Assembly: GCA_002256025.1 (NCBI GenBank)
Contig: NKIB01013343.1
Location: 1 to 59,316, forward strand
DNA length: 59,316 bases
Direction of reading: 5' to 3'
Origin: Asterionella formosa
Lineage: Eukaryota
The notes beneath the pieces were generated by a model. The model made no database searches. It was not told where the DNA came from and was given only the letters and a program-made list of their open reading frames with translations. The position numbers and the translations under genes are program-made. Within the stretch, counting starts at the first letter, position 1. Every line of letters begins with the position of its first letter. Of this stretch, positions 1 to 58,002 are shown one piece after another.

Positions 1-199
1 ACTACAATAATAATATTATATGACAAAAGTGCTTGCAAAAAGTGGTGTTAGGTTAGTCTTTGTGTTATAGACGCCATTAGATCAATCGATTGCACCAGTG
101 GCGTTTTCAAGTTGCGCTGTGATGCTGATGTTGATTTTCCCATCCACAAAATAGATTATATAGTTGGCGCTGGCATTTCTACAGTTATTTTATCAGTGG

Positions 200-830
200 C
201 AACGGACGTGATACACAGTGATCAACGGCTTGATCAGTGATACAGCATTGGTCAGGGGTCCAAAAACTGTATCAGTGATACACCCATGATACACCGGTGA
301 TCAGACCAAAAAAACCGTTGGTGATACACCAAAAAAAACCAAACCGCCATTTTTGTATCATATTTCGGCGATGATACACCAATGACAACAAATAACAGAA
401 TGATAAGAACTGCCCTTATATTTTATGTTGCTGCTTGATATCAAGACCATCATTATATTCTGGAGCGAGGGATATACACATGATCATCGCCAGCCAGTTG
501 CCGTTGAAGATCCATGTTACTCCATGATACAATGTGATCACAAATTAGTGATACAGTGACACTTTTGGAATGAATGAAATTCAGTTCAAATCGAGTTACC
601 GTTGCTGATACATTTTCAAAAAAATTCAAATTTCAAAAAAATTCAAATTCCGTGATACACGAAAAAAATGATAAGAACGGCCCTAAGGGTTGTTCTCATC
701 ATTTTCGATTTGGTATCATATTTTTTGAAAAGTATCATGCAATGGCTAATTGATTTAAAATTTAAAAAATCCATTCTCCACAAAAATAATAATAAAATTG
801 TATCACCAAAAAGTATCACGAAAATTCAAC
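200..830. repeat. Array of short TGATAC(AC)/GTATCA motifs, probably the subterminal region of a DNA transposon
   Basis: TGATAC recurs at about 210, 238, 277, 287, 322, 373, 525, 549, 606 and 653, with inverse GTATCA at about 269, 356, 713, 733, 800 and 812. AATGATAAGAAC(T/G)GCCCT is duplicated at about 399 and 667. Confidence 0.5.
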
Positions 831-943
831 GGTTACGGGCTGGCTACAAACACATGCATTTCCTTCCAAACTCCATACTGGTACCAAGCCAGTCCTCAAA
901 CCATGTAAGAAATCTATGCGTATTATGTATATGGACTACAATA

Positions 944-1120
944 GTCAATAGTATTTGCAGCCACAGGTAATGGTCGTAGTCACGTGATCATTTTCGTATT
1001 CTATCGCCTAGTAAGTGCTGGAGTGATAGTAGATACCGGTAGTGACAGCCAAAACCAAAGTATTTGCACAGCTAGTATATGTCGTATTCACGTGATCATT
1101 TTCGTATTCTATCGCCTATT
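944..1120 (+). repeat. Local tandem duplication (period about 107 bp)
   Basis: GTCGTA(G/T)TCACGTGATCATTTTCGTATTCTATCGCCTA occurs at about 974 and 1081. Confidence 0.75.
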
Positions 1121-1259
1121 ACTTCATCATGAGTTCCCGAATATCAGTACCAGGTACCTGTAATTAGATACCGGGTATATCTCTATGTACATCACTCAAT
1201 CTGTTCAATTCTCGACTTTGTGGTCATCGTTCCTTGGTGTTGTGGCTGAACAAGATGTT

Positions 1260-1650
1260 GGTGAGAATTTGAACAGCATTGATTGCCAGGAACTATCATG
1301 TCAGCAAGAAACCAAGGTAAATATTCGAATGGAGAATGTTCTAAGCATTCATTATTTTACTGAACAAAGGTATATATACAAGCAATGCAGAAAGCATTGG
1401 ATATTCACGATTGTTCTACTAAGAAAGTGGAGTTGAGTTGTCAGTTGAGAGTTGAATGGTGTCTAACACAAGAAGAATGAATATCTATGGTATACAAATT
1501 TGAGAAGAGAACCTTAATAATTGGTTGTATGGAAAATTACAAGATAAATCAAAAAATCTCACAATGAGGTGGGATTAGAACAGAAGGTTTAAGTACACGG
1601 AGCTTTTCTAGAAAGAGCTAGCATTGCAGTCAGACTGCGGAAGAATTCAA
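1260..1650 (+). repeat. Dispersed repeat; inverted second copy at about 43085-43450
   Basis: GAGAATTTGAACAGCATTGATTGCC...AGAGCTAGCATTGCAGTCAGACTGC aligns colinearly with the reverse complement of 43085-43450. Confidence 0.85.
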
Positions 1651-1679
1651 CATCTTTCAGCAGTAATGAGGGTTCCATC

Positions 1680-3320
1680 GTTAGCTATTATCTGGAGTAA
1701 CACAGAGGTAATAAAAAACTGTTGAATAGTCATCGATGACTGAAAATAGTGCGTCATTGCTATCTACCGGTACTTCTTCATTTTGCTACTGTACCTACCA
1801 CCAGCATTAATTGTTTGCTGACTTCATCTTGCTAATTACTGACTGCATTGCTGCACGTTGCGGTAATTTTGCTGAACTAAGGATTTCGCTGTGTTTCTCC
1901 CATGATCCTAACTATTACCGATAGGGAATCTTGTACGGTACATTAAATCCAGAACAAAAGATGGGCGGTTTTTCACTTTGGCCAGAAAAACTAATTTTGG
2001 AGACTTCAAGAATTTCCTGAAGTTTCCTTACGCATTTCCTGACGTTTCCTGAAGTTTCCTGAAAGTCATAGTCATTTCCTGAAATTCATAAGAATTTTCT
2101 GAAAGTCGTAGTCGCATGCTTTGTATTCTCGTTTTTGCAATTAGAAGAATTCCGCTTTTTATTTCGCTGAATCGTGCTATGAATAGAAGATGTCCTTTGG
2201 TACTATATATGATAAAATGTGTCACTGTCCGGTAACACGTTGTCTGTTTCAGGAAAATGACCGCAGCTTGCAGCTGAACCTGATGCGGTCATTTTGCTTA
2301 AATAAACAATGTAATATGGGATAAAGAGAGTTAAATTCTTAGTTCAGCAAATTTACCGTAACTTCCTGCCTTCAAGTTTATTTTGACGATGAAACAGCTG
2401 ACGGCTTAACATGTATCCAAACAATTATTTATAGAAAAATGGAGTGGCGCAAAACTTTAGGGGTTCGACAATTTTGGGGGTTGCGCCCCTGGAAGGTCTG
2501 GTAATAGCGAATTGCGCGCACTATATACTAAAAATTCCACATAGCGGTTTCAACCTACTTCATTGGAAGTCTGTCCGGCTCACCAATTCCTAAATGATGA
2601 AAATCTCAAATTTTTTCAATTTATTTAGATTACCTGTAACCGTTACAAACTTTCAAACGGAAAAGCGCTGCCACCTTTCACCGCAGAATCGCTGACTACC
2701 GACTTCAACTTGCTAACTGCTGACTTGATTTGCTGAAAATTTGAAATATTCTCTGACTGCTGACTGCTAACTTCAACATGCTGACGTCAAAGAAGCTACT
2801 TTGTACATAGGAAGAGACCGACTACCGTTACCGGTGTACGAATCGTGTCTACTTTTCATATAAGAATAACGATGGAAACGCATCATTTTTTGTTGTTGGG
2901 ATACTAAAAGCGATGCCTTCTACGTTCATGCTATACTATCGGGAGTAACATAGACATACCTGGTACCTGGTACTTTGTATATGATAAGAAACTGTGAAAT
3001 CGACATCGATGCCTAAAAAATTCATTGCTATCTACTTCGTGATATTGCTACCACCATGTACCGGTACTATCGTAAAAGTACTGACTTCAACTTGCTAACT
3101 ACTGACTGCTGACTTGATTCGCTGAAATTTTGAAAAAATCGCTGACTGCTGCTGACTGCTGACATGAAATTTCTGACTGTTGACTTCAACTTACTGACTA
3201 CTGAGTTCCAGTTCATTTCGACAATAAAACGAGTAACGGCTTAACGTCTATGTAAATTACTATTTAAAGAATATCGGAGGAGTGGCGCAAAATTTAGGGG
3301 TTCGACAATTTTTGCGGTAT
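1680..3320. repeat. Mosaic of locally duplicated segments (1680-1850 vs 2930-3210; GCTGACT-rich blocks; 2440-2480 vs 3278-3313)
   Basis: Shared GGAGTAACA...CATCGATG...CATTGCTATCTA...CTGACTTCA blocks. GGAGTGGCGCAAAA(C)TTTAGGGGTTCGACAATTTT occurs twice. Confidence 0.7.
1857..2361. mobile_element. MITE-like element with about 30-bp terminal inverted repeats
   Basis: Left end GTTGCGGTAATTTTGCTGAACTAAGGATTT; right end reverse complement GTTACGGTAAATTTGCTGAACTAAGAATTT. Internal TTTCCTGAAG-type tandem at 2010-2105. No clear TSD. Confidence 0.65.
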
Positions 3321-3341
3321 TCCCCTTCCTTTTTCTTGTAC

Positions 3342-3480
3342 GTGAATCGATGAACAGAAAACGAGCAACCTGCACGCTATGTTCGCTGATTACCGGACCT
3401 TCCTGCCTTTTTTCGCATGTGAATCGATGACCAGCCAGTAGACGAGCAACCTGCAAGCTATGTGCGCTGATTACCGGATT
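3342..3480 (+). repeat. Tandem duplication of a unit of about 77 bp
   Basis: GTGAATCGATGA...ACGAGCAACCTGCA(C/A)GCTATGT(T/G)CGCTGATTACCGGA occurs twice. Confidence 0.8.
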
Positions 3481-3949
3481 CCTGTCCATAGAGCTGTACA
3501 GACCATCTTCGCATAATATCATAGACTAAGTACAACATGCATGCGTAGTGTGTATTGTCTAAACATAGTGACATCATCTAGGTATGACCTTATATTGCAG
3601 CGAGTACCATATGTCATGAAACCAACCCTGATAAACTGTCGATTTCAATGACAAAACAAAAATTGTTCCTATTTTTCGATATTCTTTTTAGTAAACAAAA
3701 AGTATCATTTAGAATTTTTTTTATTTTTTTAAGCATTGATAGATCAATTATTGATTTGCTAGAATATTTAGTCAAAAAAGGGAACAGGAACTCCCTGGAC
3801 GAACTCACTGTGCATTTTCGGACACTTTTGTGCAAAAATTGTGATGGACCTTTCTCTGCCCAGGCTCATCATGCCAGAAAGCGCTACGCAGGCTATCCTA
3901 CTCTCCTAAAGTAGCCTTAGGACGCTATATAAATGTAAATGAAATTAAC

Positions 3950-4830
3950 CACATTATATTGGCATCCATACACCTATGTTTGTTTGACATAGTCAGAATT
4001 ACATGGTGGTCACTCTTTTTTCAGGCATATGGTCTCCTCTTTCCAGAGGTTTTTGGTTTGAATTATCACCCCCAGTATCTTTGAGCTTATCTTGTGGATT
4101 TGTTCCTGACTGGGTTCGCTTTCAAATCTTTTCCTGATAGATGATAGTGTGGTTGATGGTGGAACAACAACAACAGGTGGTGAAGGAGGAGGTGGACAAC
4201 AAGCTCAAGCTGCCAGGCAGAGTCGAAACGAGATCCTTGGGCTGTACTCCCAGCAGAGGGAGACGCAAAATGGTATGATACAGTTACAGACACAAGTGGG
4301 ATACAACCAGGTTGCAGTTATGAAGGAGATTAAAAAATTCAAACTACCCTTTCAAGAATGCCAAGGACGCCATCACAAAGATTAGCAGCAGGTAACCAAA
4401 CTTCGGCAGCCGCCACCACCGCAAATGTGGTATGCAATTCAAGCAATAATGAACAAGTTGATGCTACAGCAGACTCAGACATGATGGATGTAGAGGAGGG
4501 AGGTAGCAATTATGTCAGTAGCCTTTCCAAGGCACCAAAGACACAATTTGTTCTCTGGCAGGAATTCGAAGTTGGAATTGGGGGACAAAAGGCAGCTAGA
4601 CTATTTACAAGGGTTGAGAGGGGAAGAGTCAAGGTGCAGTATTGTTGGTGCCGAGTTGCGTGGGATACTGTGGCTGCCTTAGTTCAAGCTGGATTCACTG
4701 CTCATAGTACTGCAATTGATAAAATAGTATATGAGGTCTATGTTTTTGTCAAGATAAAATAGTAACACAGATTGTCAATCAAATGATGCAAGATCATTCC
4801 ACTGGTGCTGGTCATCCACAGCTTTGCATT
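3950..4830 (+). mobile_element. Decayed Crypton(F)-like remnant with a C-terminal GCR1_C-like DNA-binding domain
   Basis: ORF 4358-4762 contains LSKAPKTQFVLWQEFEVGIGGQKAARLFTRVERG...VAWDTV, matching the GCR1_C pattern (T/V-x-x-LW-x-E-x-x-x-G-x-x-G-x-x-A/S). It is frameshifted relative to ORF 4149-4385. Confidence 0.65.
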
Positions 4831-5328
4831 TAGATAATTACATTTACTAGCATACATGATTTTTTACATTAGCTACATTCATTGCTTGTGTTCACTTCAT
4901 TTCCGGCATGTTGACATCATAAAATGGAAATACCCATAAAATGCGATAGAGTCGTTTTCCCGGTATGTACCAGGGTACCTGGTATACCTGCAGGATTACA
5001 AGCAGCCATACACTATACCAGTATATTACTCAGAAGGAAAATACACGATGAAGCAAGCAGCGATGGTATGACAATTGTGGCTACATAGCTTGTGAACGGT
5101 ACTACCGGTAGTTAACTACTAGTACTGCTAGCTTCCACTACGCGTTTGATAAGTTTAATTTTTTACGACTACGTTCCCGGCATTTATGTGCTCATCACCT
5201 GAAACATTAAATAATGGTGCCGGTATTGAAGAACTCACTAAGCTACTAGCTGTAACGGTAATCGATGAACTGATAATTTATGAGTGGTTTAGAGATAGTT
5301 GTTGCTTCGGGCTGAGTGGTCATTGGAG

Positions 5329-5336
5329 TGACGTCA
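5329..5336 (+). promoter_or_regulatory. Palindromic TGACGTCA (CRE-like; contains the TGACGT bound by diatom bZIP/aureochrome factors)
   Basis: Lies about 165 bp upstream of the ATG at 5499. The motif is seen directly; function is inferred. Confidence 0.35.
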
Positions 5337-5498
5337 TGCTGGGTCAATAAGTCGGGAAACCTGTAGGAAACCGTTGGGGTTCTCAACAGCCGGTACCGGT
5401 ATGCCTTTTTCAGAACAGCACTACATACCACGTATTTATTTGTGTTTGTACGATGCTGACTGCACAAAAACCTTTTAGTCATTCTTGGTCCAGGAACA

Positions 5499-5873
5499 AT
5501 GAAGCTTGCTGTCGCGATTATTGCTGTTGTGGCGTCGGCCCAGGCATTTTGTCCCACTGCTTTTACGCGTGGAGATGTTGCTTCCACCAAGACGCAACTT
5601 TTGTCAGAGCCGGAAGACGATGAGGGAGGAGGTCTTGACTTGAACTTGGAGGAAATGTTCGATATGTGAGTTGGTCGCCAGAGCGAAGCGAGTATATGCC
5701 GTAAAGTTGCTGCACAGCAAAGCATGATGGTTTAACCTCGTTTGTGCCGGGCTTTAATCAGCAGCAACGTACTCACCCGATCTGATAATTTTGTTTGGCT
5801 CAGGTTTGACGCTGCCGACAAGGGGGTGGACTTCGATAAGGCACTTGACAAGGTCAAGGGTGGCACTAAATGA
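5499..5873 (+). CDS. Small (78 aa) plastid-targeted acidic protein of unknown function; exons 5499-5665 and 5804-5873
   Basis: Spliced product MKLAVAIIAVVASAQAFCPTAFTRGDVASTKTQLLSEPEDDEGGGLDLNLEEMFDMFDAADKGVDFDKALDKVKGGTK*. Intron 5666-5803 is GTGAGT...ACTCAC...CAG and preserves the frame. Signal peptide with AQA-F cleavage motif. Confidence 0.85.
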
Positions 5874-6166
5874 TGAAATGATTCTTCATGAATGTTAGCC
5901 AATATTACATCTTGGGTTCTGCATTAACGCTACTGAGACATTTAAAACGCAATCTATAGACACAAATTTGTCCTCTAGAATAATGAACATTTCATTGCTT
6001 TGTTTACTGTATACTCTTGCTTTGTTTGGAAGCATTTCGCCATTCTCTCGAGTTGCATGTTTGTGTAGCTCAAGTCACTGTCGCTCTTGGATACCTGATT
6101 CTTCTTTTAATGATGAGCTAGATCATCTCAATTCTAGATCATCTCAATTCTGCGTTACCAGCGCAC

Positions 6167-6556
6167 CTACAATGTCACGGGAGGCAATGCCCCCACGGGT
6201 ATCAAATCACGTGATCCCAGCATGAGGGGAATTAAAAACAAGACAGGGACCAAGGAAAGGATGATGTAAATAATGACTCGGGTTTGTTTTGGGTCGTTAA
6301 GATCCACTTTCAAGACTTCCTCGGCTATGTCGCCTTGGGACAAAAACGGGGCGACTACAGTTTGTGGTGTCGTGGTTGTTTCATCTCCCAATTCAGTGAA
6401 TCCGTCATCTCCTTTGGAAGATGTTAGTCGAAGAGTGGACACACTCTTAATCAAAGTTGCCGGTAAATACCGGACAAATGGTGCCGGTTGAAAGGCAGCG
6501 ACTTGTGTGGTTGTGGTTGCATAAGCAACTAGAGGAAGAGATAAATACAAGAGCAT
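6167..6556 (-). CDS. Plastid-targeted single-pass membrane protein (129 aa), unknown function
   Basis: Signal peptide ending VAA-FQPAP (ASAFAP-like), S/T/R-rich transit peptide, C-terminal hydrophobic helix VIIYIILSLVPVLFLIPLML. Confidence 0.8.
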   Translation of the reverse strand: MLLYLSLPLVAYATTTTQVAAFQPAPFVRYLPATLIKSVSTLRLTSSKGDDGFTELGDETTTTPQTVVAPFLSQGDIAEEVLKVDLNDPKQTRVIIYIILSLVPVLFLIPLMLGSRDLIPVGALPPVTL

Positions 6557-6841
6557 CTTGCTTAAACTGAGTAATTGTACAGATCATGATCAGACAAGCT
6601 TGACAACATCAGCAGGAAAGGGAATATACGCACGGCGGTACGTAAGTAGTGTATAGGACAAACGTATCGGTAGACTATTTCAGCGTAATGTAGCTACCGG
6701 CACGTAGATACCGGTATTTACATCCATCTTACCCCGGTATTTTAGATGTTTGTAAAGGTATTATCAATACGAGGTGCATGATATACTGGTACATACCGTC
6801 AAAACCTGGTGTCTCGTATCCCCCCAGATAGGGGTACCTGG

Positions 6842-7038
6842 TGAAGTATCTAACTAGAAGTAGTAGTATTTGTTGAATATATGAGCTTATTCGTTAATCC
6901 TTGTGTGTAACTCGTTCTCTAAGTCCACACCAAAATATACAATGAGGGTTAGTCGAGTTCTCTCATTATTGAGTTCTGATACATATATGATATAACACTA
7001 ACCCTATATACATCTGTATTGATGAGCAAGATCGCTTA
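6842..7038 (-). repeat. 3' LTR of Gypsy copy 1
   Basis: About 10 mismatches in 197 bp against 10811-11007 (counted by eye); ends ...TACTTCA on the minus strand. Confidence 0.95.
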
Positions 7039-10000
7039 CTCTCCCACACCAAGGAAAACCTTTTACCTTTGAAAAGGTTTGATGTAATGAATATTAATTC
7101 ATTCCGTAGTATGCATAGTTTGTTGAAAAGTAACTGTACCATTGGCATATACTTGAATAATAGAATAAGGACCTCATCCATGGTTATCCAAGGTAGTAGG
7201 ATTATCCAATAGGATTAAAACCTCATCAACAGCTTTGTAATCGCAAGAACGATGATGGAAATTATCACGAAATAGTCATTTGTCAATTATCACTTATCGA
7301 TATTGATATCTCAATATCAATTACATATCTTTAATCAAATCATATTGGAAAACCCATGTTCCTGGTGAAAATACACAATGTACTATAAATAGTAGCTCGA
7401 GCTGCATATGATGCAGCAAACTGGTATCCACAATATTCTGAACTTGAAATTCCTTGATTGGAGGATGAGCCTTTAACATAACTCGTACATAGACTTTTAC
7501 TGATAGATTGATGTAAACGTTCACGGATACCATTTGTTTGTGGATTCTTGACTGTAATGGTCCCAATTTTAATTCCATTCAACACTTACATGTGTATGAA
7601 CGGAATACCAGTAAATTGACCTCCATTGTCATGTATACAACCTTCTGGAAAGAGATATCTGTCTAACCAATCATTTTCAAGTTTCATCGCAATATATTCT
7701 GATGTCTTTTTATTGACATGTGAAATTTCTGGTAAATTGGTGACTGTGTTAACTCAAGTTGGAGCATGAAATTCAATCGCTTGTGCAGTCACTGTTATCT
7801 TCCATGGACCAATGAAATCCACTGTGACTTCTGAGCATTGCAATAATAATGCATTCCTTGGTGGAAGTTCACCAAAACCCAGCACCAGGTAATTTTGTAC
7901 GTTTTGACATGTTTCATATATGCTTGCAATATGTTCCACTCTTGCTTTTAATGGAGGATAGTAAAAAATGTGCAGAAACTGTGGCATTTCATCTTGTCAT
8001 ACCCATATGAGCTAACCTCTGATGATAACAATTAATAATAGGATCCAATAGTGATGTAGGAATAACAATACGTCAAGTATCTCCTGGATTCTTCACAAAA
8101 CATATAAAATGTATATGATGAAAATCGATAGAGGAAAATTTTAACGGATGTGTTTGTTGATTGAGAATGAGATGAGTTGTTTGATTGAGAATCAATTGTA
8201 TATCCAGCAATTGTCTATCATGTATTGAGTTATAATCCAGAGGATATTTAATATTGTCTGCCAAAATTGGATGATTGAGGAAACAGGTAAACAAAGGTTC
8301 ATCATCTAATTCAATTGAGAAAGTAGAAATGGATGTTGATGCTGAAGATTTCGGTCCAATATCATCCCCCACCAAAGACTCAAGCCTCGGGAGGCGAGAG
8401 ATAGAATCTGTAATATTTGACATTATCAGTACCCTTCATATTGTGAAAAGTGAGAAGATATTCTTCAATATAAATCCTCCACCGGAGAACACGTTGAGTT
8501 TCTGTGTAGGGTAATAAAGATAAAAATATGATGATCAGTGTGAACATGTAGAACCGCATTCAATGGCATAGAGCGAAATTCTTTGAAAGTTTCTGAATTG
8601 AAAATCAGAAACATTAGGAAAAAATATGGAAAGGAAAATTACGATCAGGATAACGCATGGGTGTATCTGCAACTAACAATGCTTTTATTGATGCAAAAGT
8701 TTGTTGATGTATGCATAGTAGGTAACCATACAAATGGACTAGTTCCATTTAAATCCTGTTTTGAATTTTGAAGACCAAAATTTGAAGTCAGTTGGAGTTT
8801 ATCGATATCTCAATGAGTCAGTTTCTTCAACAGACCATTTCATTTAGAATTTTGCTGGATGATTTGTGTTAAATAAATTTATTTCAGCCATTTCAGCATC
8901 TTTCTGTGTCTGTATAGTTAGGAGCTTGAATGTTCCATGTGTGAACATAACCCTTGATAGGTGTATCAAAATATGATAACAAACCATTGTGCAAATGTTC
9001 TGTATCATTATAGGAATGCATGACATGCAGAAAAATACTGATATATCCACCATACAGACAGGGCATGGTATTTGTAAATTATCCATCATAAATTAATCAG
9101 CTGGACAAATTAGCAAACTCGCAGAAGGTACTAAGACCAGGTACTTCTGTTGCAAGATTCAAGCTGACGGATTAAACTTTGGGAGCATCATAAGACAGAT
9201 TCAATGTGCTGTTGCTCATAAATATATGTATATTCCAACCTGTAATTATCCTGTAAATAACAATAGTTATTCAGGTAATGATTTACGTAAGACATATTCA
9301 ATGTGCTGTCGCTCATAAATATATATATATATATATATGTAAATTATTAAAATCGTAGCATTGGTGCTATTGTCGCACATACTTCTGTTGTTAAGGCGAT
9401 CTGTTCAGCATTCTGCTGGTTTTTTATTAGGCACATCGGCCACTAACTGACTAACAGGAGGGTTCATGACCACTAAAATTTCCTGGGCAGATTCATGATA
9501 GTCGGCAGGTTTGGCCCTGGGCACAGTACCCTAACCAGACATCATCATAGGGTTAACCCATGGATTTGCTTGTATAAAACATGTACGGAAGAAAAAAAAC
9601 ATGAATAGAGTTAGCTGTGTTAGTATGATAATTTGCTCCACGTAGAATTTCTACGCCAGAGGAACAGGAACAGGAGTCCGAACAGGAACAAGGTTAGTAG
9701 TGTTAGTAATGTTAACTCCATGAACCTTATGTTTGACCGTTGTTTCATATCCCATGAGTGGCCGGCTGCATTAAAATGCATGTGCCCTGCCATTGCCACT
9801 GAGTTTAAAATTATCATGTACAAATTTACGCTTGAAATGGTGGTTGTATTCTTGATACATCACAGGACTGCATTTAGCAATGCAAGACGATCTTTTGTTA
9901 AAATTGACACTAGTCACGCTTATTTTCTTGATGCATCATGGAATTTTCTTCAACTTCAACTATTTATATACGATTTTGTGTTAGAAAAATGACACCAGCA

Positions 10001-12259: not shown

Positions 12260-13540
12260 TATCAAATGATCCGATCCTACTTGACTATTTAACAGCAGCA
12301 AAGCCCTCAAATCCAATGTTCCTCCAGGAATTGGTGATTGTTTCAATTGAGACTCTATCCCAGCATGCCATTTCTGTCCATTGTGCAATGCAATGCCTTT
12401 GCACCTTGGCATTATCCACATTGGAAACCATGTATTCTTCACAATATCCACGCATGTAGTCCTTGAAGGGCTTATTGACTCCTACATCCAACGCTTGAAC
12501 TCTAGAAGTGTAGCTTGGGAGGACGAAATCAACTTCAGTGCCGCAATTTTTAATTGGATCAACACAACGTTCTACCTTGTGGACAGTAAAATCATCCATA
12601 AGAAGGTGACTAGGCTCACTGAATTTTCCCAACACAAACATTCAACCCAAGCTTTGGGTTGACAAGCATATTTAATACCAACCGGAAAAAGTTGTTGATT
12701 GTTGTCTAGCTAGTAATCCCAATTGCCTCGCAATACGTCCATCCCTTGTTCCTGTAAATACAATTAATGGTGGCAACTTCTCACCACTTATTGTCACCCC
12801 TAAAATCACAGTGCAACGATTCAAATTCCCTGTTGTTCGAAGCCCAATGGTCCTTTCGCCTCGGGTTGCCAAAGTCCTTCTTGATTCAAACATGACAAAA
12901 TTGATGTTTGTCTCATTAATATTGACAATGTTTCCAGCAGGAAATTCGAACGCAGCAATTTGATTGTTGATGTAGGAAACAAAATCCTGAATCTGTTCCT
13001 GGTCCAGCCTTGAATTTTGGGCAACAAGAAGCACACGCCTAATGACAATGTCCTTACGGGCGAGCCGGCGCTTGAACCGTTTTTCAAGTGCCTTCAGCGA
13101 CACATTTTAGTTCCAAGGTTGCCTCTTAAGCTCAACACTGAGCATCCTGATGGTGCAGGCCGTATCTTGAAGCCGCAACTGGTCGAAAAGAGACTCCAAT
13201 CCTTCAGACTCAGCAACACCTTTTGGAGAGCAGCCCGGGTGAGCGATTTTTTATCAACACCTGCCTCTAAATCAAACCTTCTTCCTGCAGTGATATCTCC
13301 ACCGCCACCTCCGCCGGACCCACAACTATTGTACCATCTAGCATAGACTTCCAGCTCCGTATCTGCTTTGGCTGAACCAAATCTGCTCTGGCGGTTCCTT
13401 GATATTGTTGGGCTTGCTGTATGCTTCTGCAACAATATTTTCCTTCTGCCTGATGCAGAGATATTTTTTCGTTGTCGTGCTGATGGTTCCGGGATTCCGT
13501 AGAAAATGATTTGGTTGGCTAACCTCAATTTCTATCATGG
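12260..13540 (-). mobile_element. Frameshifted pogo/Tigger-type (CENP-B HTH + DDE_1) transposase
   Basis: Motifs NINETNINF, CTVILGVTISGEKLPPLIVFTG, LLMDDFTVH and LPSYTSRVQALDVGVNKPFK are spread over several frames. TIRs not located. Confidence 0.9.
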
Positions 13541-19930: not shown

Positions 19931-20646
19931 AATCCAGTATCTGCAATTAAAAGCTATCATATTCCCATGATGCATCATAGGATTGTGATCATCTGATCAT
20001 AATTTTTCGTTATGATATCATCTAAGAATTTTGATAAATGCCCTTGTAATTTAAATAGTAACCCTTTTGACTACATATATCTAATTTTTATATGTATAAT
20101 TTCTATTAGATTTCTGTATTTGAATTTCTTGGTAGGATAATTTACCAGCTGAAGTAATGTAATTTGGCTTGTCATTTCCATCCGTCATTACTCCGATTTT
20201 TGCAACAACAACAAAGTACTAGACTAGCGATGACAAGTAGAATGATTGTTTGCGATAATGTCTTCAAATGTTGGTCAAGTGATCCTTATATCTTTGATTA
20301 ATTGTCATGTGCAGTGAACCTATGTTCATAATCATTCAATTAAGAGTTTACAGAGAAGAAATCATTCGAACTCCGAATGGTTCCGCACATAGCACAAAAA
20401 GTAAATCCATTCCATTGACCACCAGCATAACAATCTCGCAAATCAACTTGTAAACAAACACATTCTACTTGTTCTCGTTGACATTTTCAATTCTCACATG
20501 ATACTACATCTGCAATTGAGATTCAGCATAGAAGGAGATACTAAAATGTAACAGACTACGGTCCACATAGTTATAGTTATAGAATGATTCTGATTACAAT
20601 TTCTTTTTCATATCGCTCGTTTCCCCATTTGGGATACTGTACTTGT

Positions 20647-21030
20647 ATTCACTGTTGAACTTGTCCGCATCTTTGTTACCATTAATTGAGCGACAAGTGG
20701 CTCACTTCATTGTTGTTTGCTCATGAAAAACCCGCCTGGTATCTGTATCATCAACAATAGAGGGACGAATGTCCTTCGTCATTACCATTGTGGCTTGCTG
20801 CACGAAAAATTTGAGATCCGTATTGTCATTTGCTTGTTGGAACTGTCCATTGCCTCAAACCTGCTTGGCGTGTGCGTACACACACTGCCGACTTGTTTTC
20901 ATTGGTATGTTGTTCTAATATTCACTGTTGAACTTGTCCGCATCTTTGTTATCATCAATAGAGCGACAAGTGGCTCACTTCATTGTTGTTTGCTCCGGGA
21001 AAAATCGGTGTCTGTGTCATCATCAATAGT
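20647..21030 (+). repeat. Tandem duplication, period 273 bp
   Basis: ATTCACTGTTGAACTTGTCCGCATCTTTGTTA...GAGCGACAAGTGGCTCACTTCATTGTTGTTTGCTC at 20647 and 20920. Confidence 0.8.
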
Positions 21031-21405
21031 TGTGGCATGTTTCGCTTTGTAATCGGTATAATGTACAGATCCTTTTGTTCTGTACCAATTGTCCTAGTAT
21101 ATCTGCATGTTTTCTTTTGCGGAGCGCTCCTCATTCCTAGCTTTCCATGCACTAAGTGCCAAAGTTGAGAGATTGCTGTTCTCACCCATCAACTACCTTG
21201 TGCTCCTATGACTCCTGTGACGTGACGTCTCCTGAGGACGAGCTACAGAGAGCTTTTGTCCATAGTATTTTCCTCAAATATTCCCAAAGGGTAAGCTATG
21301 TTCCCAGCATTGCTTGATGAGCCACCACCGCTTTAATTATCTCTTCAATGTTTTGTAAGCAAGGCCTGGAGAGAAAATTTAGGTAGAAACTCCCCCAGAG
21401 TCTCC

Positions 21406-23333
21406 TGTCTGTAAATAAAAACTATCATGAAAATATGATCAAGGGTATCGTACTTTAACTGGCACAGGATTTTTACATATATGATAGTTTTTCGATCAAA
21501 AATATGATCAATGTATCATATAATTATAATCATGCTGTAAACTTTTACCGAGCTTGAAGTATGATGAGCGATACTATCATAGTTATAATACCATTGCATC
21601 ATATAATTAGTTAAACATGGTCATATGATGTGTATACTTTTGTCATACATCTATATTAGCATGATCGTAATTCTCATCGATATCACTGCCTAAAATAGGA
21701 TGAAATGGATCGAAATTTAGAACTATATTTAAGAATGGTTCTATGTTTCTATATCTTGAGTGGCTACAAAATGTTCTACACTTCTCTCATTGCAATGATT
21801 GGTGCTTCAGCTGCTTTCACTTCCACTTTCCCCCCAATCCAATTCTGAAGGTTGTTGTACTGGTTGCCTTTCCGTTGTTCCCCTGCTTGCTTTGTTCCAT
21901 TTAATCCTGACGGATCTGAGTTTGCATTCACGCACTATTGAATCCGTTTCGTCGTTCCAATCAGCCATACTAACAAAGAGAAGCAATTCATTGTTAGTTG
22001 TTCATTTTTTGCTTACACAACAACATGCATTTCGCTTCTACCTTCACTTACCACAAATTGAGGAAGTACCTGATGCATATTTCTGTAAAAGGATGTGTCA
22101 GTTCAAGATTGAATGAGAAAGTATCGATCAATAGATGGGCTCCAACGCTGCTGTTTGTAAATTACAAAAACTGTTTGTCTACCATTATCCTGAAAGAAGC
22201 AACACATATGTGTCAAGTTTTTCTAACAGTTGTGGATTGATCCAAAGATGATAACACTTACCGATTTCTTTTGTCCGCATTGATGGTTCTTGGCCAGCCA
22301 CCAAATCGAAAAGGAGCTATTGAATCACTGAAAGGGGATGAGTCATTCTGTATTTGTAATCCCAACAATTGATCATTCTGGCATTTGCTCTTGACATGCC
22401 GTGATACTATGCACAGCTTGTTGATTCCGTCCTTCTCCCTCATATTCACTCCTTCTTAGCCGCATGGTGTATCATTGTGCTGCATTGTCACTTCAGTTTT
22501 TCGCATCATGTGTTGCTTGAGATCCTTCATTTCAGGAAGTGTATGCATGACAAGAAACATGAAAGGCATTTGCTCTTGACTTACCATCAATTGATCCCGC
22601 CCTTCTCCGTAGTCACTCCTTCTAAGCCGGTCGCAAGTATCATTGTGTTGTATTATCACTTTCGTTTTCCATGTCATCATGTTTGATGATCCTTCATTTC
22701 AGGAGCAAAGTGTATGCATGACAAGGAACATGAAAACATGATTTCAATGCATCAGCCAGCCATGAAAACAGCTATATAAAGATTTGTGAGAAGTTTAAAT
22801 GTATATATAGTTGAACAATTGCATAGTTTTAAACACTCTCATTATACGGCATATCCTGTGTATACTAAAATCAATTTTGATCATACATAATTCAAATATA
22901 TACAATGCATGATGCGTTCATAGTTTTCTACAACCTGTTGAAGTTTTTCAATTTGTTTTGTGTCAATTCTTGTACCTACAAGTCAGTGGCTGATTTAATT
23001 AAGCCCTTAAAAAAGGGATTCATCACCAATTTTTCAAATGGTCTAAATCATACATTTATGTATATAGACATATTGACCAAAAATCATTTGGCCTACCGGT
23101 AGTGCTGTATACTTGCTGGGAATTTCTTCTATCATGGAAATACCACAACAGTGCAGCGGAAAACTGAATATGCTCATGTCTATAGGATCATTTGATCATA
23201 TTTTTAAGATCAATTAATCCTGATTTTCTCATCAACGACACCATTTATCATGATATGATCAATATGTTATAATCAAAGGTATAGGATAAACGAATCAAAA
23301 TTTATTGATTAAAGATCATAGTTTTTACCGGAG
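21406..23333. mobile_element. Nested element with ATGATCAT-rich ends; left end homologous to the reverse complement of 46560-46748
   Basis: Starts TGTCTGTAAATAAAAACTATCATG...GATCAAGGGTATCGTAC...TGGCACA. The right end ...GATCATAGTTTTTACCGGAG is tentative. Internal duplication of about 170 bp at 22466-22740. Confidence 0.55.
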
Positions 23334-26300
23334 TAGTTGCTCATGCATGCAACACCTCCCCCCTGTATACAGTACGGAAGTGATAACCCCCTAGCTACCA
23401 AATGTTTATGTCTTGTAAGGATTATCGCAGCATGCATGCATACATGACTCCTACTGGTATATACAATGCGGAAATGATGACCACCAGACTACCAATCCTA
23501 TAGGTCCTGTAGAATTACCGCAACATGGCTGCATATCTAATGAAAGGGTGGGAGAAGTCATCCATGCTGCAACTGTATAGTATGAAATGTGGAAATGATC
23601 AAATATAGTCTACACAAGAAGCAGTGCTTCATATATGCCCTGCTGTTTTTATTTTAATTCCTATGAAATCTCGCTCTTGATCTGTTCTGCGCTTTTTCGC
23701 CACAATTGTTTTCATTGGTTGTTTCACTGGACAGCATTCGAATTGATTGTGCTTTGAACGAAGTAATGATCGAAGTCCACCCCATTGCAGAATGGTGAGT
23801 CTCACAACTTAGTATCAGCCAGTCGATTAAAATTGGACTGTCTTTTGTGCACACTCGTCGTGTTTGTAATTGACTTAATTTGTGTGAGCCAAGAGCAGCC
23901 ATGGTATGCCACCATTTATTGTCTATACAAGTTTCGAATGCATTCAGCTATGATACTTTTGCTCCCCCCTACTACAGACTATCTCACCACCCTTGTCATA
24001 GATTTTTCTTTATCCTTCGGCTTCACAGGCCCAGGTTACTCAATGCCTTCATCTGCAAGTTCAGCCAAGCATGTTGGCGTCAAGAAAACCTCAACCCCGA
24101 TTTTCCTCACATGCTCAACCCATTGACTTCTTCATTAATGAAGTCGAGGTAGCTATATTGACGACATCAGGTGGCGCAGGCTTGTATATATTGATGATGC
24201 CGAAAGCATTGCTTCCTTTTCCCATATGTACCTATTTGTCAACATTGTTTGGGTCAATCCATTCTTGTTCCCGCAAGACCAGAAGCGATTATCCCTTTAC
24301 TTCTCCTCCCAAGAACCTTCATTTCTGCTTCACAATTGTCCTGATGTTTGCAGAGCATTTTTAACTATTTCCCTTTTGATTTTCCCACTGGTTTCGATCC
24401 CTTTTGCATTCAAGTCAAGAAACAAGCAATTCATTGAGATTTCTGGAGGTTTTGGTCAGTGGCAACATACAGCAAGCAACAATCAACAGATCATGGCGGC
24501 TGTTCTCCATTTTCTTTAGCAAGTGACATCCAAGAAGGGTCTGAGATCATTGGGGAGAAAAATTAGACTCCTCTGTGTTGTTTGCCCCTGCCCGGTTGGC
24601 ATTCTACCATTGCTTCCTCTCAATCAATACTAGCTAGTATAGCTAATGAAAACCGTAATTAGATGAAAAGTGACTTCCGGTTTCTAATATTTTACATTGG
24701 TGCACTAGTACTGAAACTTGAATCCATAAATGGTCATTCAACTTGTGCTTCTTGCATTTGTGCAGTATAGATTGGCTGGTGGTCGATAGGCCAAAGTGTC
24801 TCGCTTTTCATGATCATCTACAAGGTACTAGTGCTTTTGTCGAGGTTTGTGTCTAAATCCAACTGCTGCCATCCATTGAACCATTCCAGATACATCAAAG
24901 AATACGCTCCTGTCTTCAAAGGTAAGAAACTAGTACGATGACAAAGGAAATCTGATGAGACATGAAAACTCCGAAACCAGGCAGAATCACTCTGTTACTA
25001 TAAATAGACAGTCTCATGCTTCTTTGTGCGTATCGCCTGCTATGCTGCATTTCAATTCTAGATGTATTACATTCTTGTTAGAGAGACGAAGTTACAGAGA
25101 AGTAGATTTTACTGTTCTATAATTTTGTAGCTATGATTGAGGTTGTAACACTGATCGATGCTCTGGTGACAGACCGGCCGGAAATATTCGTCTTGTGTGA
25201 TGAGCATTTCGTTTTCATTGGATTTCTTTTCAAGCTCTTAACGGATTGCATATGAATATACTGTGCAATGTAGATGATGATTCATCGAAGACATATGATG
25301 ACTTGAACAACAAATGAAGATTTTTCACAAACACTCGTTCCTCTCGACAAGGCTGGTTTGTCGTTGTTGCAAGAATCAGAGTGAGGACTGGCAAGGATGA
25401 TGAGCCAAACCACAGCCATTAATCTATCTGGTTCATTATCCTACCAAGAAATTTAAATAAAGGAAACTAAAAGAAACAAAAAATATAATAATTAAATTTC
25501 CATTGTCAAAGGGTTAATATTTTAATTACGAGGGCATTTATCAAAATTATTAGATGATATAACGAAAAACTATGATCAGCTGATCATAATCCTATGATGC
25601 ATCATAGGAATATGATGGTTTTTATTTGCAGACGTTGGTTTGAGGTTGTGAGGTTCAATTCCCGCAATTTTTTTAGAGGTAATTGTTGGGTTCGACTCCC
25701 ACACTCCTTACCATCCTGCACGATCTTGCCTTGCTTGTGTGCAAGAAATAGTGGGTTGCTCCCCTACAAGCAGCATGTGCCGCCTTCCTAGTTGGTGGTC
25801 GGAGTTTCCCCTAATGCTGCGGTTAAGACAATCACCTTTCACAAAAGGTGGTTGGGGACTCACCTATGCTAACAAAACTAGGGAAGCACAGGTCTTGTTG
25901 GCAGGTAGCATAATGAAAGACTTGCCTAGAAATAGGGCAGTACAAATGGGCTATAAAACATACTATCCTTTTAGTTGTATTAGTGAGTATAACAGTGAAA
26001 CACTGAATGTGGAATGTAGATCATACTATTTGTCAAATTTGCGATTTCATTGCTTCCATTGTCCATTTTGATTGCTTCCATCATTGTTTGTTGTTCTGTA
26101 CTGTCATTCTGGTTCGATTGTATCTATCTACAGAAGGGACAATGTATGTATCAATGCGAATTCTTTGAAGATGTATTGTTGTTGATCTTATTTGTTGATT
26201 AGTATAGTCATTGATCATGCTGATGTCAATATTGCCACCACCAAGCAATGCTTTTCTTGTACTAATACGCTTTGCTACCTTTCAACTCAGAGTCCTTCTC

Positions 26301-43673: not shown

Positions 43674-43684
43674 TGCAGGTACTA

Positions 43685-44376
43685 GGGCGGAGTACCACCT
43701 AAAAACTGCTTTGAATCTCCATCGGAGTTATTTTACGGCTTGTTTGAACCTCTATACGTAGAATAACGCGTTAGTCACGAGTTTTCTGCTTAGCATGTAG
43801 CACTTCTCTATGTATGAACGAGTTAAACTGAACATACATTTGTGTATAGTCGATATTTATATTTCATACGTGAAAGTGTCGATCGACCTTTTTTTGACAA
43901 AATAGCGGTTGACCACGACGTCGGAGTATTCAGGCATGAATTCGTTCATGAATTAAATAAACCTTATCATTATCATTTATTTATTTAGATCACACATAGA
44001 TTTGTTTAGCGCCAATGTAGAAATTATACCAAGTGTATGTAGCACCGGTAATTGATGGCGAATATGCATCATTAAACGTTGCACTGGTAATCCGTCTTCC
44101 CTGTAGAACATAAATTGATTCTACGGTATTAAGATATTTTTATATACCACTTTGAACCTCTATAATTGATAAATTCATGAATATAAACAATCATATCTTC
44201 CATTGTGCGTCGATGGAATCTGGGTGAATCGTTTGTCCAATCATAATCCCCCACCTCTCGTGAACATCTGGAGCATCTAAGATGATTGAAATGAATATTT
44301 CAGTGGTTAGTCATACTAATCGATCGAACGTAGTGAAAACGAGGTTCAAAGCAGTTTTTAAGTGGTACCTCGACCT
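43685..44376. mobile_element. MITE of about 690 bp with about 35-bp TIRs, flanked by TA
   Basis: GGGCGGAGTACCACCTAAAAACTGCTTTGAATCTC vs reverse complement AGGTCGAGGTACCACTTAAAAACTGCTTTGAACCTC. TA at 43683-43684 and 44377-44378. Confidence 0.75.
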
Positions 44377-46559
44377 TACCAGGTACCGGTACCTTAAAAT
44401 ATGGAATACTGTACATTATATGACAACCGGTACCAGACGTATTTACTGGTACCATGTCGTCCATCTGCATCCGGGAGTTGTTATTAATGGCATTATCGAC
44501 AGGAGCCATTTTTCTTGCAGCAACAACTTAAAAAGAAACATCATCATCGCTTTCAGTATCAATTAGGAAATCCTGTGTAGCTGATAGTGTCCCCATTGAC
44601 GATGGGGTAGTTCCCGCACTAACTCCTTGTCGCCGATTGGGTACAATCGCCGATTCGCTTTTTCTTTGTTAACTCATTTTGGTACTTGCTTCTTTGTTCC
44701 ATAACAGCAGTATTTGCCACATGTCACTTGTTTCCATGAACGTCTTGATGCTTTTTTGAAGACATTGTCCTCCTAGATAACTGTTGTTGTTGTCTTAAGA
44801 AGTTCGATGATCTTAAAATCAGATGTTGCTACAATGAAATGAATCATCAGCCACTACATGTAATATTTTACACTGTCTAGATACAATACCATAAGACCAA
44901 CAGTGCTATTTACATTATCAAATACAAAATCAGAACCAAGTTTGAGTAATAGCATATCTTGCTTTCAATTTTATGATCATGCAATCCTGAAATTATGATG
45001 ATTTACTGTCCCGCTACAATAGCAACAGTCCTGAACATATGGTGTTCTGTTGCTTGCTTACTACTCCGGCCGACTACCCCCAGTATATCACTTCCTACCT
45101 GCTACTAGTACTCTGTATATATACATATGATAAAATGCTATGATCATATGATGTACACATGAAGAACTCCCGCAAAATAAGGGGCTTAAATATTTGGCTA
45201 CCAAAATCCTTGCATATAAATAATGATACAAATGGGTTATGACTTACACCAATTGAATGGTCTACATAATTAGTTCCAACGGACGTAGAAAATATTGATG
45301 CAAACAACATTCAGAAACAGTACTGTTACACGAAGTCGTGGTAAACAATGGATATATCATGCATTGAATATTTTCGAATTATGTATATGCAAATAAGATC
45401 ATCTCAATAATACCAGACGTGCCATATTGAGAGTGCCTTTGAATTATATAAATGTACGACACTTAATATATTTATATATTTACAAATTTTATAACTATAT
45501 ACAGGGCAAATATATTTGAAATCGTTCTGACATCATGTTAACAAACAATGCCTGCTTCATGACGACAAGAAATTTCATAGTGACATTTGACAAAAGAAAG
45601 TTTACGCAATGACGAAAAAGATTATGGCTTTGACACATTGCGCCTTCGAAGGATGGAGTATGTTTAAGGTAATGAAGCCATCAATGTGGTACATGGATGA
45701 CAATTGTTGGGAGGACAACAACAAATAGTAAACTAGACGCACGTTTCCTTTCTTCTCAGTTGATTCAATAGCTCATTTCGCTTGTTAGGGAGCTCCAATG
45801 TAAAACAAAAAAATTGGTAAGTGCTATTGTCCTTGGACCTATTCACTACTGTTGGAACATAACTGAAGGACACATTTACCTTCTTTCAAAGTTAAGCTAA
45901 CGAAATGAATCGGTAAGTTTTCTTTGACAACATTGGATACCTGAAACTTACTACTAATTCAAGAATTTACTGACAATTTACTGACAATTTACTATTACAG
46001 ACTTATGCATCACTTGCTTTGATTTTTGGTAAGTGAAGCAAGAGGACACAATGGAATTGCGTGGTGTTGTGTCAGTGTCACATGACTAGCTAACAAGTCA
46101 TTCCTTCTCATTGTTACTGTAATTGCATAGGACAATAAAACCGATCAAACAAAGGACTAAACGGCAAGTTCAGAGTGTCACTAACAGCAAGGAGAGCGAC
46201 GAGACATTAAGCACTGCATAAAAAAATCAGAATAGAGGAGGGGCGAGACAGGAACAATATACATTGAGCCGAGTGGAGAGAGAAACATTGGGTCGCTGGC
46301 CTGTAGAATCATAGATAGCATTGCTAAATTTGATAGTTAAATTACGATCTATTCCAATCTATTTTGAACAATGCTTGTGATTAGAATTATGATGATGTTT
46401 ACGATAGATATACGATGAGACAATTCACATGATAGCATAGAGTTGAGCTGATTTTAGGATGCATTGTAGTAATAATTTATATTTGGCGATCACGAGAATT
46501 GAAAATGATATGAGAAGGTTTATGATGTTGATGAGTAATGTTGTTGATCAGTTGATATA

Positions 46560-46748
46560 CATTGTGTGATGATACTGAACTTATTATCATTATACTTCAA
46601 GGTCGGTAAAATATTAATAAATCATCATAGTTACAGGATACCTTGATCATAGTTTTGATCCAAAAATTATCATATATATGAAAATCTTGTGCCACTTAGC
46701 GTACGATACCCTTGATCCTATATGCATGATACTTTTTATTTGCAGACG
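46560..46748 (-). mobile_element. Terminus of a CGTCTGCAAATAAAAA-family element
   Basis: The reverse complement matches 21406-21590 over about 170 bp and shares its terminal 16 bp with 25634. Confidence 0.7.
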
Positions 46749-55010: not shown

Positions 55011-58002
55011 GAATCACGGCGGCGATAATGAGCTCCAGCGGTAGGATCAACGACAGTAAAAGTTCTTTGGTACTAGTACTTCTTGTCAGAATCACATGCG
55101 CTACTGTCGCTGCAATCAGAATCACGACAATAGACAGAGCTGGAGCTTTCAAGATCAGAATGGTGTTTTGCTAAATCGGAATCTTTCACAGTTGTAGTGG
55201 ATACATTACTTTTACAAGTTTCTTTAACAAAGCTGACAATGACAAGAAAGAAACAGTGCAACTGTGAGTGATTGCAAAACCAAGGAACGGAAGCACAATG
55301 ATGCAACAATCAACAACAAACGCACCTATATTCTACGTCTTTTTTTGCTTTCTTCAATGGCTATTTCGGGAATACTTGCAGTATTTGCAGCAACCTCATT
55401 CTGTTCCAATAAACTGAAGAATGTAATGGATTGAATATGTTAGCTAGGATGAAATCGACCATACAGGCAGCATGGAAGCACACAAAAATCAACAACATAC
55501 CTAAGCTTCTTTTTCCTTGCCAGTGCACACAATGGCGATGCAGCACGCCGGTTACCATCTTGCTCTTTGCGCTTAGCAGTCTTTGTCACCGCTCTTTGAG
55601 AGAAACGACGGCTTCTAGTTCCCGTTGTCATTGTAGAATAATCAGTATGTTAGAAATATAATAACATTGAATGAAACCAGAACGAATCTATATTTTAGAG
55701 CCGCTCAAAAAGCACTATCAAACTTGCTTCCAAGCCATCATATCTGATCTTCACGTAGAAACATACTAAAAAAATCATTTTTGAATTGTGACTGAATATA
55801 ATGTATGGAAATAGCACCAAACATCTGACAACGATGGCGCGAAATTGACTCCTTACCAGCGCAACCCATGAATCTTGGTCCCCAAAAGTCCAATCAATGA
55901 TAGTATCGATGAGCGATCATCCGAGTCGTCAGTGTCCAACAGATCGGATGATGAATGATGAGACTTTTGGAGTTCGATTGAATTACTAGGAATTACAATT
56001 TTGGCGCCACCACGATGAAGTAGGTATGATGATACGACATGAATCCCACGTAAAGACGAGTAATCCAACAACCAACCAAATCTGTTTGATGACAAAGTCG
56101 CTACTTTCGTCATCAATGAGCACATTTTGCTTCAGATTGGGCATGATGATTGATGATTGACTGTGTCAAAGCTGTATTTCCGCCCTCACATTTTAAGAAA
56201 CAAACAGAATCGATGTATATTACAACAGATTCGTGAATTCTAGAAACAAACTATTAAAATCTGTTGAGTATATAAAATGGTTTCCTTAAGTAGAAACCTT
56301 GCCAATTTCGGCAATCCCAGGGCTGGATAACCGAGGGGCAATTGCTACAAATTGTAATATCAAAATGCGAAAATAGGAAATATACAAAATATGTATAATG
56401 ATGGGCGATATAGGACCCATTGCAAATTTCGATGTGAAGATAGGAATTATATTAAATATATTTCATAGGATGGGCTATAGCGAGCTAAAATTGACATTTA
56501 CACCCGATGAGTGGGCAGTAGGTAAGCAAATGGCGCAACGATAGCTAGTTTGTGAATGGGCCTCAGCAATACCCTTCTCGGTGGCTACATGCCTTCTCGT
56601 AAACATGTGTACTCGCAGGCATGAGACCACCTCGGGCGTGTATTGCCTTCAGCAGTCAATTTTAGGTTTGAGCAGCAGGGACCATCGAGCAACGTCAGGA
56701 GTAGAATTTTCATGAGAAAAAGTTTGGACACATCAAAAATGCATGGACCACCAGATATACCGGTACCAGTATATGCATGAAAAATAGTCACACAAGAATG
56801 ATTGTACCAAGAATCGAAAATTCGACATGATGTTGTTAAGCAACCAAAGTATGAAATGGAAATCGAAAGTTAAGAAGTAAAAATGACAAGCAGGGAGTAG
56901 AATAAAAAGTGAAAAAAGAAAATGGGTCAGCGGAAAAATGGTGTGAAAATTTGTCAACGCATTTTCATTAACAATTGTCATCTCACACTTTTAGAAATGT
57001 TCAGATTGGGCCTGGAGGAGCAGAAACCGATGCCTGAATGGATTTAGAGGCAGTGCTGGTTTCTGTATTGATTCGGACTTGTGGTTGCGGAGGTGTTGGA
57101 GGAGCAACACCATTGCTGGCGTAAAGTTACAAGACCGGGATACTCCAGCCGATCTGCAGCAGGTGAGTAAAGTCAATTAAACCAATCAGAATATGCGTAG
57201 TGACATGGGAACTTACCCTGGAGTCTTTTCGGACAGAGAATTATTCAGGAAAACATACCTACGCAAGACTCTAAGTCTACGAGAACGTTTTTGCACGTAC
57301 TAATTCCGATTCCAATATTTTGGCGACTGTTGAAAAAACCGATCAGGTCGACTTTTTGGAAGAGGATTGCTCTACATCTACGGGGTTTTATGACGATTAA
57401 AATAGATAGCCGTGTACCCTATAACGTCAGGAGTTAACTTCTGGAGAGAAGTGGCAGTTATGTATTGTAGATTTTTTGAAAAGCTTTGTAGTACCTTTTC
57501 TTGGCTAGTTTTGCGGTAGTTACGAATCTCTGATACATAACTGCGCCACTTGTTCGTTCAACCTACTCACGCCTCCCAAGCCTCGAACACAAGAATACTC
57601 ACAGGCAGTCTCCACCCTCAGTCGTGTATTACCTTCAGTATATTACTCATGTAACAATGTACTGTACACATACCAGTATTCTTTAAGGTTCCTGCATTTG
57701 AACCCCTACATAGGCAAAAATTAAAATATTGCTTAGGGTTGCCGAAATTCCCTGGAACTCAGAATTTTTATGAGCTATTTTTGAATGACGTGATCTTAAA
57801 TATTTAAATGAGTGGATATTTGCCCATATGCACATAGATTCCTTTTCGAATTCGCTAAATATAAATATAAAAATTCTCCATTGCTCGATATATATATACA
57901 CTATAATACGATCAACATTTATGTGTCAGAGCATCAAGCTGGCAACTTGGCAAATATCATTGATGACTATACTGGTAAGAAACAAAAAAAGCGAAATCAA
58001 CC

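Follow-up and report, generated by a model that had tools for sequence, protein, structure and literature searches.

Short insertions between repeat copies in Asterionella formosa as probable excision scars of resident cut-and-paste transposons

Introduction

Copies of one repeat around positions 1755, 2930 and 3024 differ by very short words set between two TA dinucleotides. What made these words, how common are they, and which elements, if any, can be matched to them? We addressed these questions in the whole stretch of 59,316 nucleotides (the window), which is one entire contig of an assembly of 68.4 Mb in 15,436 contigs. When Tc1/mariner elements excise, the cut in the non-transferred strand falls a few bases within the element, so that repair by NHEJ retains terminal bases between two TAs, as set out in passages of PMC8151067, PMC4561436 and PMC2874221. 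A sequence-only reading of the locus had suggested excision of this kind. Our analysis indicates that the small insertions are probably end-joining scars from excised resident cut-and-paste transposons of at least three families, one of which is not restricted to TA.

Materials and Methods

Small indels were collected by self-alignment of 186 segments chosen around transposon matches. Together these cover 781 kb, or 1.1% of the genome, and form a sample that is mostly repeat DNA and biased to repeats. Gaps were kept only with clean flanks, and polarity was taken from third copies by the majority of copies. Motif counts were compared with a Markov-2 background; the window has 40% GC and is CpG-depleted. 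The flank test used the base preference at positions -14 to -3 (3 to 14 bases from the junction) with position-permutation p values, and included 103 CGTCTGC, 83 pogo and 22 CCA ends. The strict three-state test (empty, occupied and scarred copies of one site) was BLAST-based, looser matches being mostly chance, and it compares paralogues, not alleles.

Results and Discussion

Insertions at the locus

All three strings quoted in the sequence-only reading are present in the copies concerned, and its gain of TA-CCGG-TA at 1765 is borne out. In an alignment of 17 rows (15 distinct copies), one row carries the word, 15 rows lack the six bases and one other copy has TA-CTAG-TA at the homologous TA, so the difference is an insertion. 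Assembly error is excluded, because this stretch is identical in contigs of three public runs (X1, X2 and X6). A GT-GC-GT insertion lies 16 bases ahead of the CCGG scar. At 1787 the reading was right that nine bases are extra relative to the 3024 copy; they may stem from separate CTG and CC gains, as it proposed, or from a single event. The nine bases are common to C9877, C5191 and C9941/C3705, occur in a variant form in C13532/C3719 and are missing from nine other copies; the gain is an insertion inherited within a subfamily. The sequence at 2957 is, as claimed, absent from the 1700 copy, and the gap of about 25 bases is a small array of TA-x-TA units, whose relatives carry one or two CCTGG units each. 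The repeat at 1690-1850 has many copies in the genome. These sites are listed with the other mapped features in Table 1. One X7 contig over 5358-5602 has a 6-base gap, which may be the motif at 5394.

Table 1. Scars, reference sites and transposable elements mapped in the window.
Feature	Position	Strand	Basis or remark
GT-GC-GT insertion (NN-GC-NN class)	1749..1754		10 short vs 0 long partners
TA-CCGG-TA insertion (pogo-type scar)	1765..1772		11 short vs 1 long partner
9-base TA-CTG-TA-CC-TA gain	1787..1797		inherited by one subfamily; one or two events
MITE with the 3024 copy, ends GAAGG..CCTTC, 3-base CTG duplication	2492..3402		presumably Harbinger-like
Empty TA	2556..2557		homologue occupied by CCG-ended pogo (C402); TA-CTGG-TA in C13239
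AT-GCT-AT, 5-base insertion with 2-base duplication	2928..2934		7 short vs 1 long
TA-CCTGG-TA-CCTGG-TA array	2957..2972		alignment of copies
TA-CCGG-TA in 3024 copy	3059..3066		common to close relatives
TA + terminal inverted repeat of CCG-ended pogo	6794..6830	+	
Decayed pogo (DDE_1) transposase	12324..13531	-	parted from the 6796 end by a retroelement
Nested copies of CGTCTGC-ended family	19939..25634		23 insertions of 3-9 bases inside
TA-flanked MITE, CCA..TGG ends	43693..44367		candidate source class of TA-CCWGG-TA
Partial copy of CGTCTGC-ended family	44447..46748	-	
Empty TG	57164..57165		homologue occupied by CGTCTGC-ended element (L253); TG-C-TG in C13036

Enriched words and their total load

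Two of the words that the earlier reading took for footprints are strongly enriched in the window. TACCGGTA occurs 14 times against 0.4 expected and TACCWGGTA 17 times against 0.5, 33-35x over background, and TACCAGTA/TACTGGTA occur 13 times against 2.1. TACTAGTA is weak in the window (3 against 0.7) and reaches 53 against 10.5 in the 781 kb; CCSGG is also enriched (20 against 2.3). Two other words proposed as common scars fared differently in the window: TACTGTA/TACAGTA (8 against 9.2 expected) is at background and TACCTA/TAGGTA, that is TA-CC-TA, is found 20 times against 23.9. Both were rejected as main scar classes, although a CAG-ended pogo exists (L032). An origin of CCWGG by decay of CCSGG was likewise rejected, as the sister product CCCAG/CTGGG is unenriched (7 against 5.8). 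CCAG, CTGG and CTAG may be largely CpG-deaminated CCGG, because the window is CpG-depleted (rho 0.71). The claim that such footprints have rewritten the intergenic DNA goes too far: about 800 motifs in 781 kb make up roughly 0.7% of bases, and the load rises to about 1% once the second class of scars described below is added. Scars are thus sprinkled through the DNA but have not rewritten it.

The small-insertion spectrum between paralogues

After grouping by homology, 825 events were insertions and 408 were deletions, while 454 groups were ambiguous. Deletions are mostly of 1 base. Among the insertions the commonest lengths are 3 bases (268) and 4 bases (185), 453 together as against 156 of 1 base (105) or 2 bases (51). 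Within the 825 insertions, 205 are of the form NN-S-NN (S, C or G), 122 are NN-GC-NN and 23 are TA-CC..GG-TA, so that scar types account for 350 (42%) of the polarised small insertions; the corresponding deletions number 17, 3 and 1. The 23 insertion groups against one deletion group agree with the direction in which the earlier reading had the TA duplicated. CCGG, CCWGG, CCAG/CTGG and CTAG fillers occur at TA only, with the TA duplicated; single CCWGG indels were caught in only three groups, all ambiguous.

The commonest stereotyped insertion, NN-C/G-NN and NN-GC-NN, was missed by that reading and occurs at any dinucleotide. Since some fillers are restricted to TA and others are found at any dinucleotide, two processes must be at work, and the class that is not TA-specific points to a different transposon superfamily. 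Its filler is constant across differing flanks: among unambiguous insertions, 110 of 118 of 3 bases hold C or G and 56 of 69 of 4 bases hold GC, at 40% GC, and at non-TA sites alone, before grouping, it is C or G in 85 of 93. NN-CG-NN was found in none of the 825 polarised insertions. Different copies can carry a C/G and a GC variant at the same homologous position, a sign that both have one source. A flank-templated (P-nucleotide) origin of CCGG was rejected, the filler being identical in 12 polarised groups with unrelated flanks.

The process is recent, because the same scar types set apart copies from other samples that are 96-98% identical. Thirteen allelic contig pairs were tried; their overlaps are mostly identical, with few scar-type indels (TA-CCWGG, GT-GCC-GT, TA-C-TA), and no occupied-versus-scarred allele was found among them. 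CCWGG words cluster in arrays, some of which expand by tandem duplication (42971 versus 43546).

Candidate source elements

TA-flanked elements with the termini that the sequence-only reading called for are all present, with CCG, CCA(G/C) and CAG ends. The genome holds 93 DDE_1 matches. Pogo family A is 2.46 kb long with CCG..CGG ends, which we take to be Tc2-type, and encodes a 433-aa DDE_1 transposase between its TIRs (PF03184, E=3e-20), with TA duplication. Identity among most of its copies is 99-100%, there are 80 exact ends, 83 of 96 CCG ends have a TA flank, TIR pairs were found and the empty site is present in paralogues. The CCG-ended pogos are young; they include further families, and the CAG-ended L032 is another pogo. 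In the window a retroelement parts a decayed pogo transposase from the pogo end at 6796; the transposase has itself received TA-GC-TA (12706) and TT-C-TT (12877). Decayed, mutually inverted LTR retroelement copies with RT, RNase H and integrase zinc-finger matches lie at 6838-11513 and 33360-38243, the former nested in the pogo copy. Family A also has a second, convergent frame of 145 aa with no Pfam match (L058:4323-4760, minus strand; likewise L179).

The CCA-ended MITEs, with 24 + 34 exact ends, begin with CCAC or CCAG (43695-44365 in the window) and have a TA duplication, and the sister copy of the MITE in Table 1 has an empty TA site. GG-TA is the context of 14 of 22 and 15 of 24 of their ends. 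An autonomous DDE/D partner was not found, and a PF13358 profile search returned no match. As an alternative to Tc1/mariner they may be affiliated with ESTA, which is EnSpm-like with a TA duplication (PMC12730594).

The third candidate is a family ending in CGTCTGC, with 467 exact ends in the genome and C..G termini (CGT..ACG). Six of eight end pairs show a 2-base duplication, at varied dinucleotides, and an empty site was seen in pogo copies. The interior ORF is collinear in two copies and has 159 genome matches; all five of its protein relatives, at 47-49% identity, carry PF18759, and the ORF of L207 matches this profile with E=5e-4 and 19.8 bits, below the 26.3 cut-off. Four of five ORFs of the family have no Plavaka match in Pfam, Atlas gave 0.95 with recognition below the Atlas threshold, and a PF02992 profile search had no match, its control likewise matching nowhere. 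PlavakaA and PlavakaB make 2-base duplications and fall within the CMCT clade (CACTA-Mirage-Chapaev-Transib), as stated in parts of PMC12730594. The CGTCTGC family resembles Plavaka in its 2-base duplications, its long subterminal repeats and the PF18759 of its protein relatives, and differs in its termini, those of PlavakaA/PlavakaB being TGT..ACA or CATCA..TGATG. Its nested copies in the window hold 23 insertions of 3-9 bases with a 2-base duplication, the filler being mostly C, G or GC.

P0001 was considered as the transposase of this family and rejected, being only 25-28% identical; P0001 comes instead from another Plavaka family, a very young one with 125 matches, seven of them at 100% identity, and has an intact ORF of 930 aa. 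The left end of the second family starts with CTAAG (G000 C258/C1852/C2248; L355-L363). A short CGTCTGC-derived piece is fixed 208 bases behind its ORF, and there are also fusions of its 5' part with interiors of the CGTCTGC family.

Pairing scars with elements

The insertion-site preferences of the TA-flanked elements match those of the scars, and the comparison extends to the CGTCTGC family. NN-S-NN and NN-GC-NN scars correlate with CGTCTGC ends at r=0.70 each (p 7e-4 and 2e-4) and with pogo ends at r=0.23 (not significant); polarised CCGG scars correlate with pogo ends at r=0.51 (p 5e-4) and with CGTCTGC ends at 0.28 (not significant). The flank preferences fit one family per scar type, but the pairing is imperfect: CCA-type ends also correlate with the polarised CCGG scars (r=0.47), and CGTCTGC ends with the TACCGGTA words as a whole (r=0.52, p=0.02). 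For CCWGG the GG-TA context was compared: 294 of 518 half-sites have it (57%), as do 63-64% of CCA-type ends, against 8 of 83 pogo ends (10%), 14% of CCGG words and 136 of 2470 background TAs, a test that is partly circular because arrays place the CCWGG motif in its own flank. TA makes up 29% of the sites of C/G scars against 9% of those of CGTCTGC ends, and part of the TA-C-TA class must therefore come from another source.

At 21 sites occupied by CGTCTGC elements, 163 paralogous copies were compared; 3 of them have a scar at the same dinucleotide, where 0.2-0.4 would be expected (p 0.001-0.009). For pogo, two such sites were seen, one of them the empty TA at 2556; the strict test gave 1 of 72 copies, and the pogo sites are not clearly above chance. 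TA-C/G-TA scars were also seen three times one base beside the CGTCTGC-occupied dinucleotide of a paralogue (in fetched repeats), which suggests local hot spots.

Proposed mechanism and its rivals

We infer excision, overhang lengths and repair route as follows. Pogos with CCG..CGG ends would insert at TA and on excision leave a few terminal bases on each flank; two 3-base CCG overhangs could pair via CG and yield TA-CCGG-TA, from which CpG decay would give CCAG, CTGG and CTAG. Plant mariners leave 4-base overhangs. MITEs with CCA(G/C) ends would insert at TA with a preference for GG-TA sites, and two CCAG overhangs joined with an A:A mismatch would yield TA-CC(A/T)GG-TA. Each CCWGG scar may in turn create new GG-TA-CC targets, and arrays would grow because of this supply. 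Plavaka-like elements of the CMCT clade with C..G ends would cause duplication of any dinucleotide, and their scars would read NN-C-NN, NN-G-NN or NN-GC-NN. A filler of C or G alone would be simple retention. Retention of both ends predicts CG, whereas CG was observed in 0 of 825 and GC in 122; GC would need a G gained at the 3' end of each flank.

If a hairpin on the flank were nicked one base within the element, C would be turned into G, which could account for GC over CG. The hairpin model found no support in longer fillers (11 of 21 against 9.9 expected, p=0.39); 4-base fillers other than GC complement the flank in 2 of 29, and the flank-palindrome test was negative. Transib and RAG1 have common CMCT motifs and form hairpins on the flank, according to parts of PMC5499845. 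The known hairpin footprints of hAT, Transib and RAG are flank palindromes, in contrast to the constant filler here.

For the NN-C/G-NN and NN-GC-NN class no element may be needed at all: 2-base staggered breaks could be filled in and receive an untemplated G from a TdT-like polymerase at either or both of their 3' ends, the breaks being of Spo11/topoisomerase type or due to aborted target cutting by a transposase. Terminal nucleotide addition is G/C-biased. Breaks of this kind would explain the G-then-C order and the lack of CG (0 of 825) directly, and 14 of 36 5-base insertions are bracketed G..C around a middle base unrelated to the flank. We nevertheless regard this as unlikely, since the scar flanks fit the CGTCTGC site preference out to 14 bases (r=0.70) and 3 of 163 copies have the scar at the very dinucleotide where a paralogue holds the element, although aborted target cutting by the same transposase would satisfy both of these tests.

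It is about as doubtful that TA-CCWGG-TA is made by the CCG-ended pogos, as CC plus an added A/T plus GG, instead of by the CCA-ended family. Active-looking pogos are abundant, no autonomous CCA-ended element was found, and the enrichment of CCSGG (20 against 2.3) would fit; the GG-TA context of CCWGG resembles that of CCA ends and not that of pogo ends or CCGG words, with the circularity mentioned above. An origin of the GC class in an unseen family with G..C ends and a 2-base duplication, which would yield G, C and GC by simple retention, or in the second, younger Plavaka family, is distinctly improbable. The second family does exist, and only 1.1% of the genome was read. Yet the terminus surveys of the first 460 kb revealed no G-ended family with a 2-base duplication, C is likewise the first base of the one end of the second family that could be seen (3 flanks), and the flanks of the GC class fit the CGTCTGC family. 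That the TACC(W)GGTA words owe their abundance to selection as regulatory motifs or to growth by slippage, with the insertions secondary, is very improbable and for CCGG largely refuted: CCWGG words do cluster and can expand in tandem, TACCGGTA is a named promoter motif in Phytophthora (in the motif list of PMC3597505) and only 2 of 47 motifs lie in long ORFs, but the depletion in ORFs per TA is not significant (p=0.12), each word appears in a single step at a bare TA, without a template next to it and inside decayed transposons, and slippage cannot make the first unit.

Relation to known footprints and implications

The proposed excision scars resemble Tc1/mariner footprints (Sleeping Beauty, Stowaway/Osmar) in that the TA duplication is kept and the filler consists of the element's terminal bases, and the CC(A/T)GG join parallels the C(A/T)G mismatch join of Sleeping Beauty (CAG footprint). 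The 433-aa transposase, short TIRs and TA duplication are those of pogo-like elements (DDE_1, PF03184). Unlike in the Tc1/mariner reports, the proposed scars have CCGG and CCWGG as fillers, derived from elements with CCG and CCA ends, and what is seen is accumulated natural variation, about one word per kb, and not a single test locus. Our literature search, mostly of open-access papers and with older En/Spm footprint papers outside its scope, found no report of these scars, no published footprint of CCG-ended pogos and no footprint or biochemical data for Plavaka; the word 'footprint' is absent from the main text, as available, of PMC12730594. The mechanism of the TA scars is known, with new fillers and an unusual density. 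The scale and the Plavaka-type scar look new.

Two promoter motifs of Phytophthora infestans, M93 (TACATGTA) and M94 (TACCGGTA), are listed in part of PMC3597505. They read TA-CA-TG-TA and TA-CC-GG-TA, the forms expected of Tc1-type and pogo-type scars, respectively.

Taken together, we tentatively suggest, as a reading that falls somewhat short of even probability, that excision scars are the main source of small insertions here (42% of those polarised), that each family leaves its own word, that NN-GC-NN is an inverted terminal pair left by the Plavaka-like family, that the CCA-ended family builds its own targets so that arrays grow by positive feedback, and that 'promoter motifs' of other stramenopiles, such as TACCGGTA and TACATGTA, may be scars. 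If this is true, NN-GC-NN would expose an undescribed cutting or repair of CMCT ends, and the constant C, G or GC filler would be a natural read-out of Plavaka-type end cutting. The scars would act as a mutational force that frameshifts or lengthens DNA. Footprints also record transposition by elements since lost. Scars outnumber insertions of 1-2 bases here, so they would preserve, family by family, the past rates of excision and the preferred targets. Over-represented palindromes from motif searches can accordingly be scars, not binding sites.

Other features of the window

Several MITE families have 3-base C(A/T)G duplications, at 1850-2369, 2492-3402, 43008-43085 and 43597-43676, with ends CAAG..CTTG or GAAGG..CCTTC; the 3-base duplication ruled them out as TA elements. 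The MITE that contains the 3024 copy is presumably Harbinger-like. CCWGG scars may be targets of these MITEs, because they often lie in A-CCWGG-T context. At 1-760 there are back-to-back MITEs with GGG ends and TAA/TTA flanks, assumed by us to be PIF/Harbinger-like, which have the deepest read cover within 1-6830. Elsewhere, TTAA-flanked repeats with GG ends (L052, L062 and L059) are, we assume, Kolobok-like. Host genes are found at 26883-33104 and 51619-53085, comprising a class 3 lipase frame of 1428 aa together with genes for a pyridoxal-dependent decarboxylase and for a UBR-box protein. Near 5500, a small gene encodes a signal peptide with what we take to be a diatom-type plastid targeting motif.
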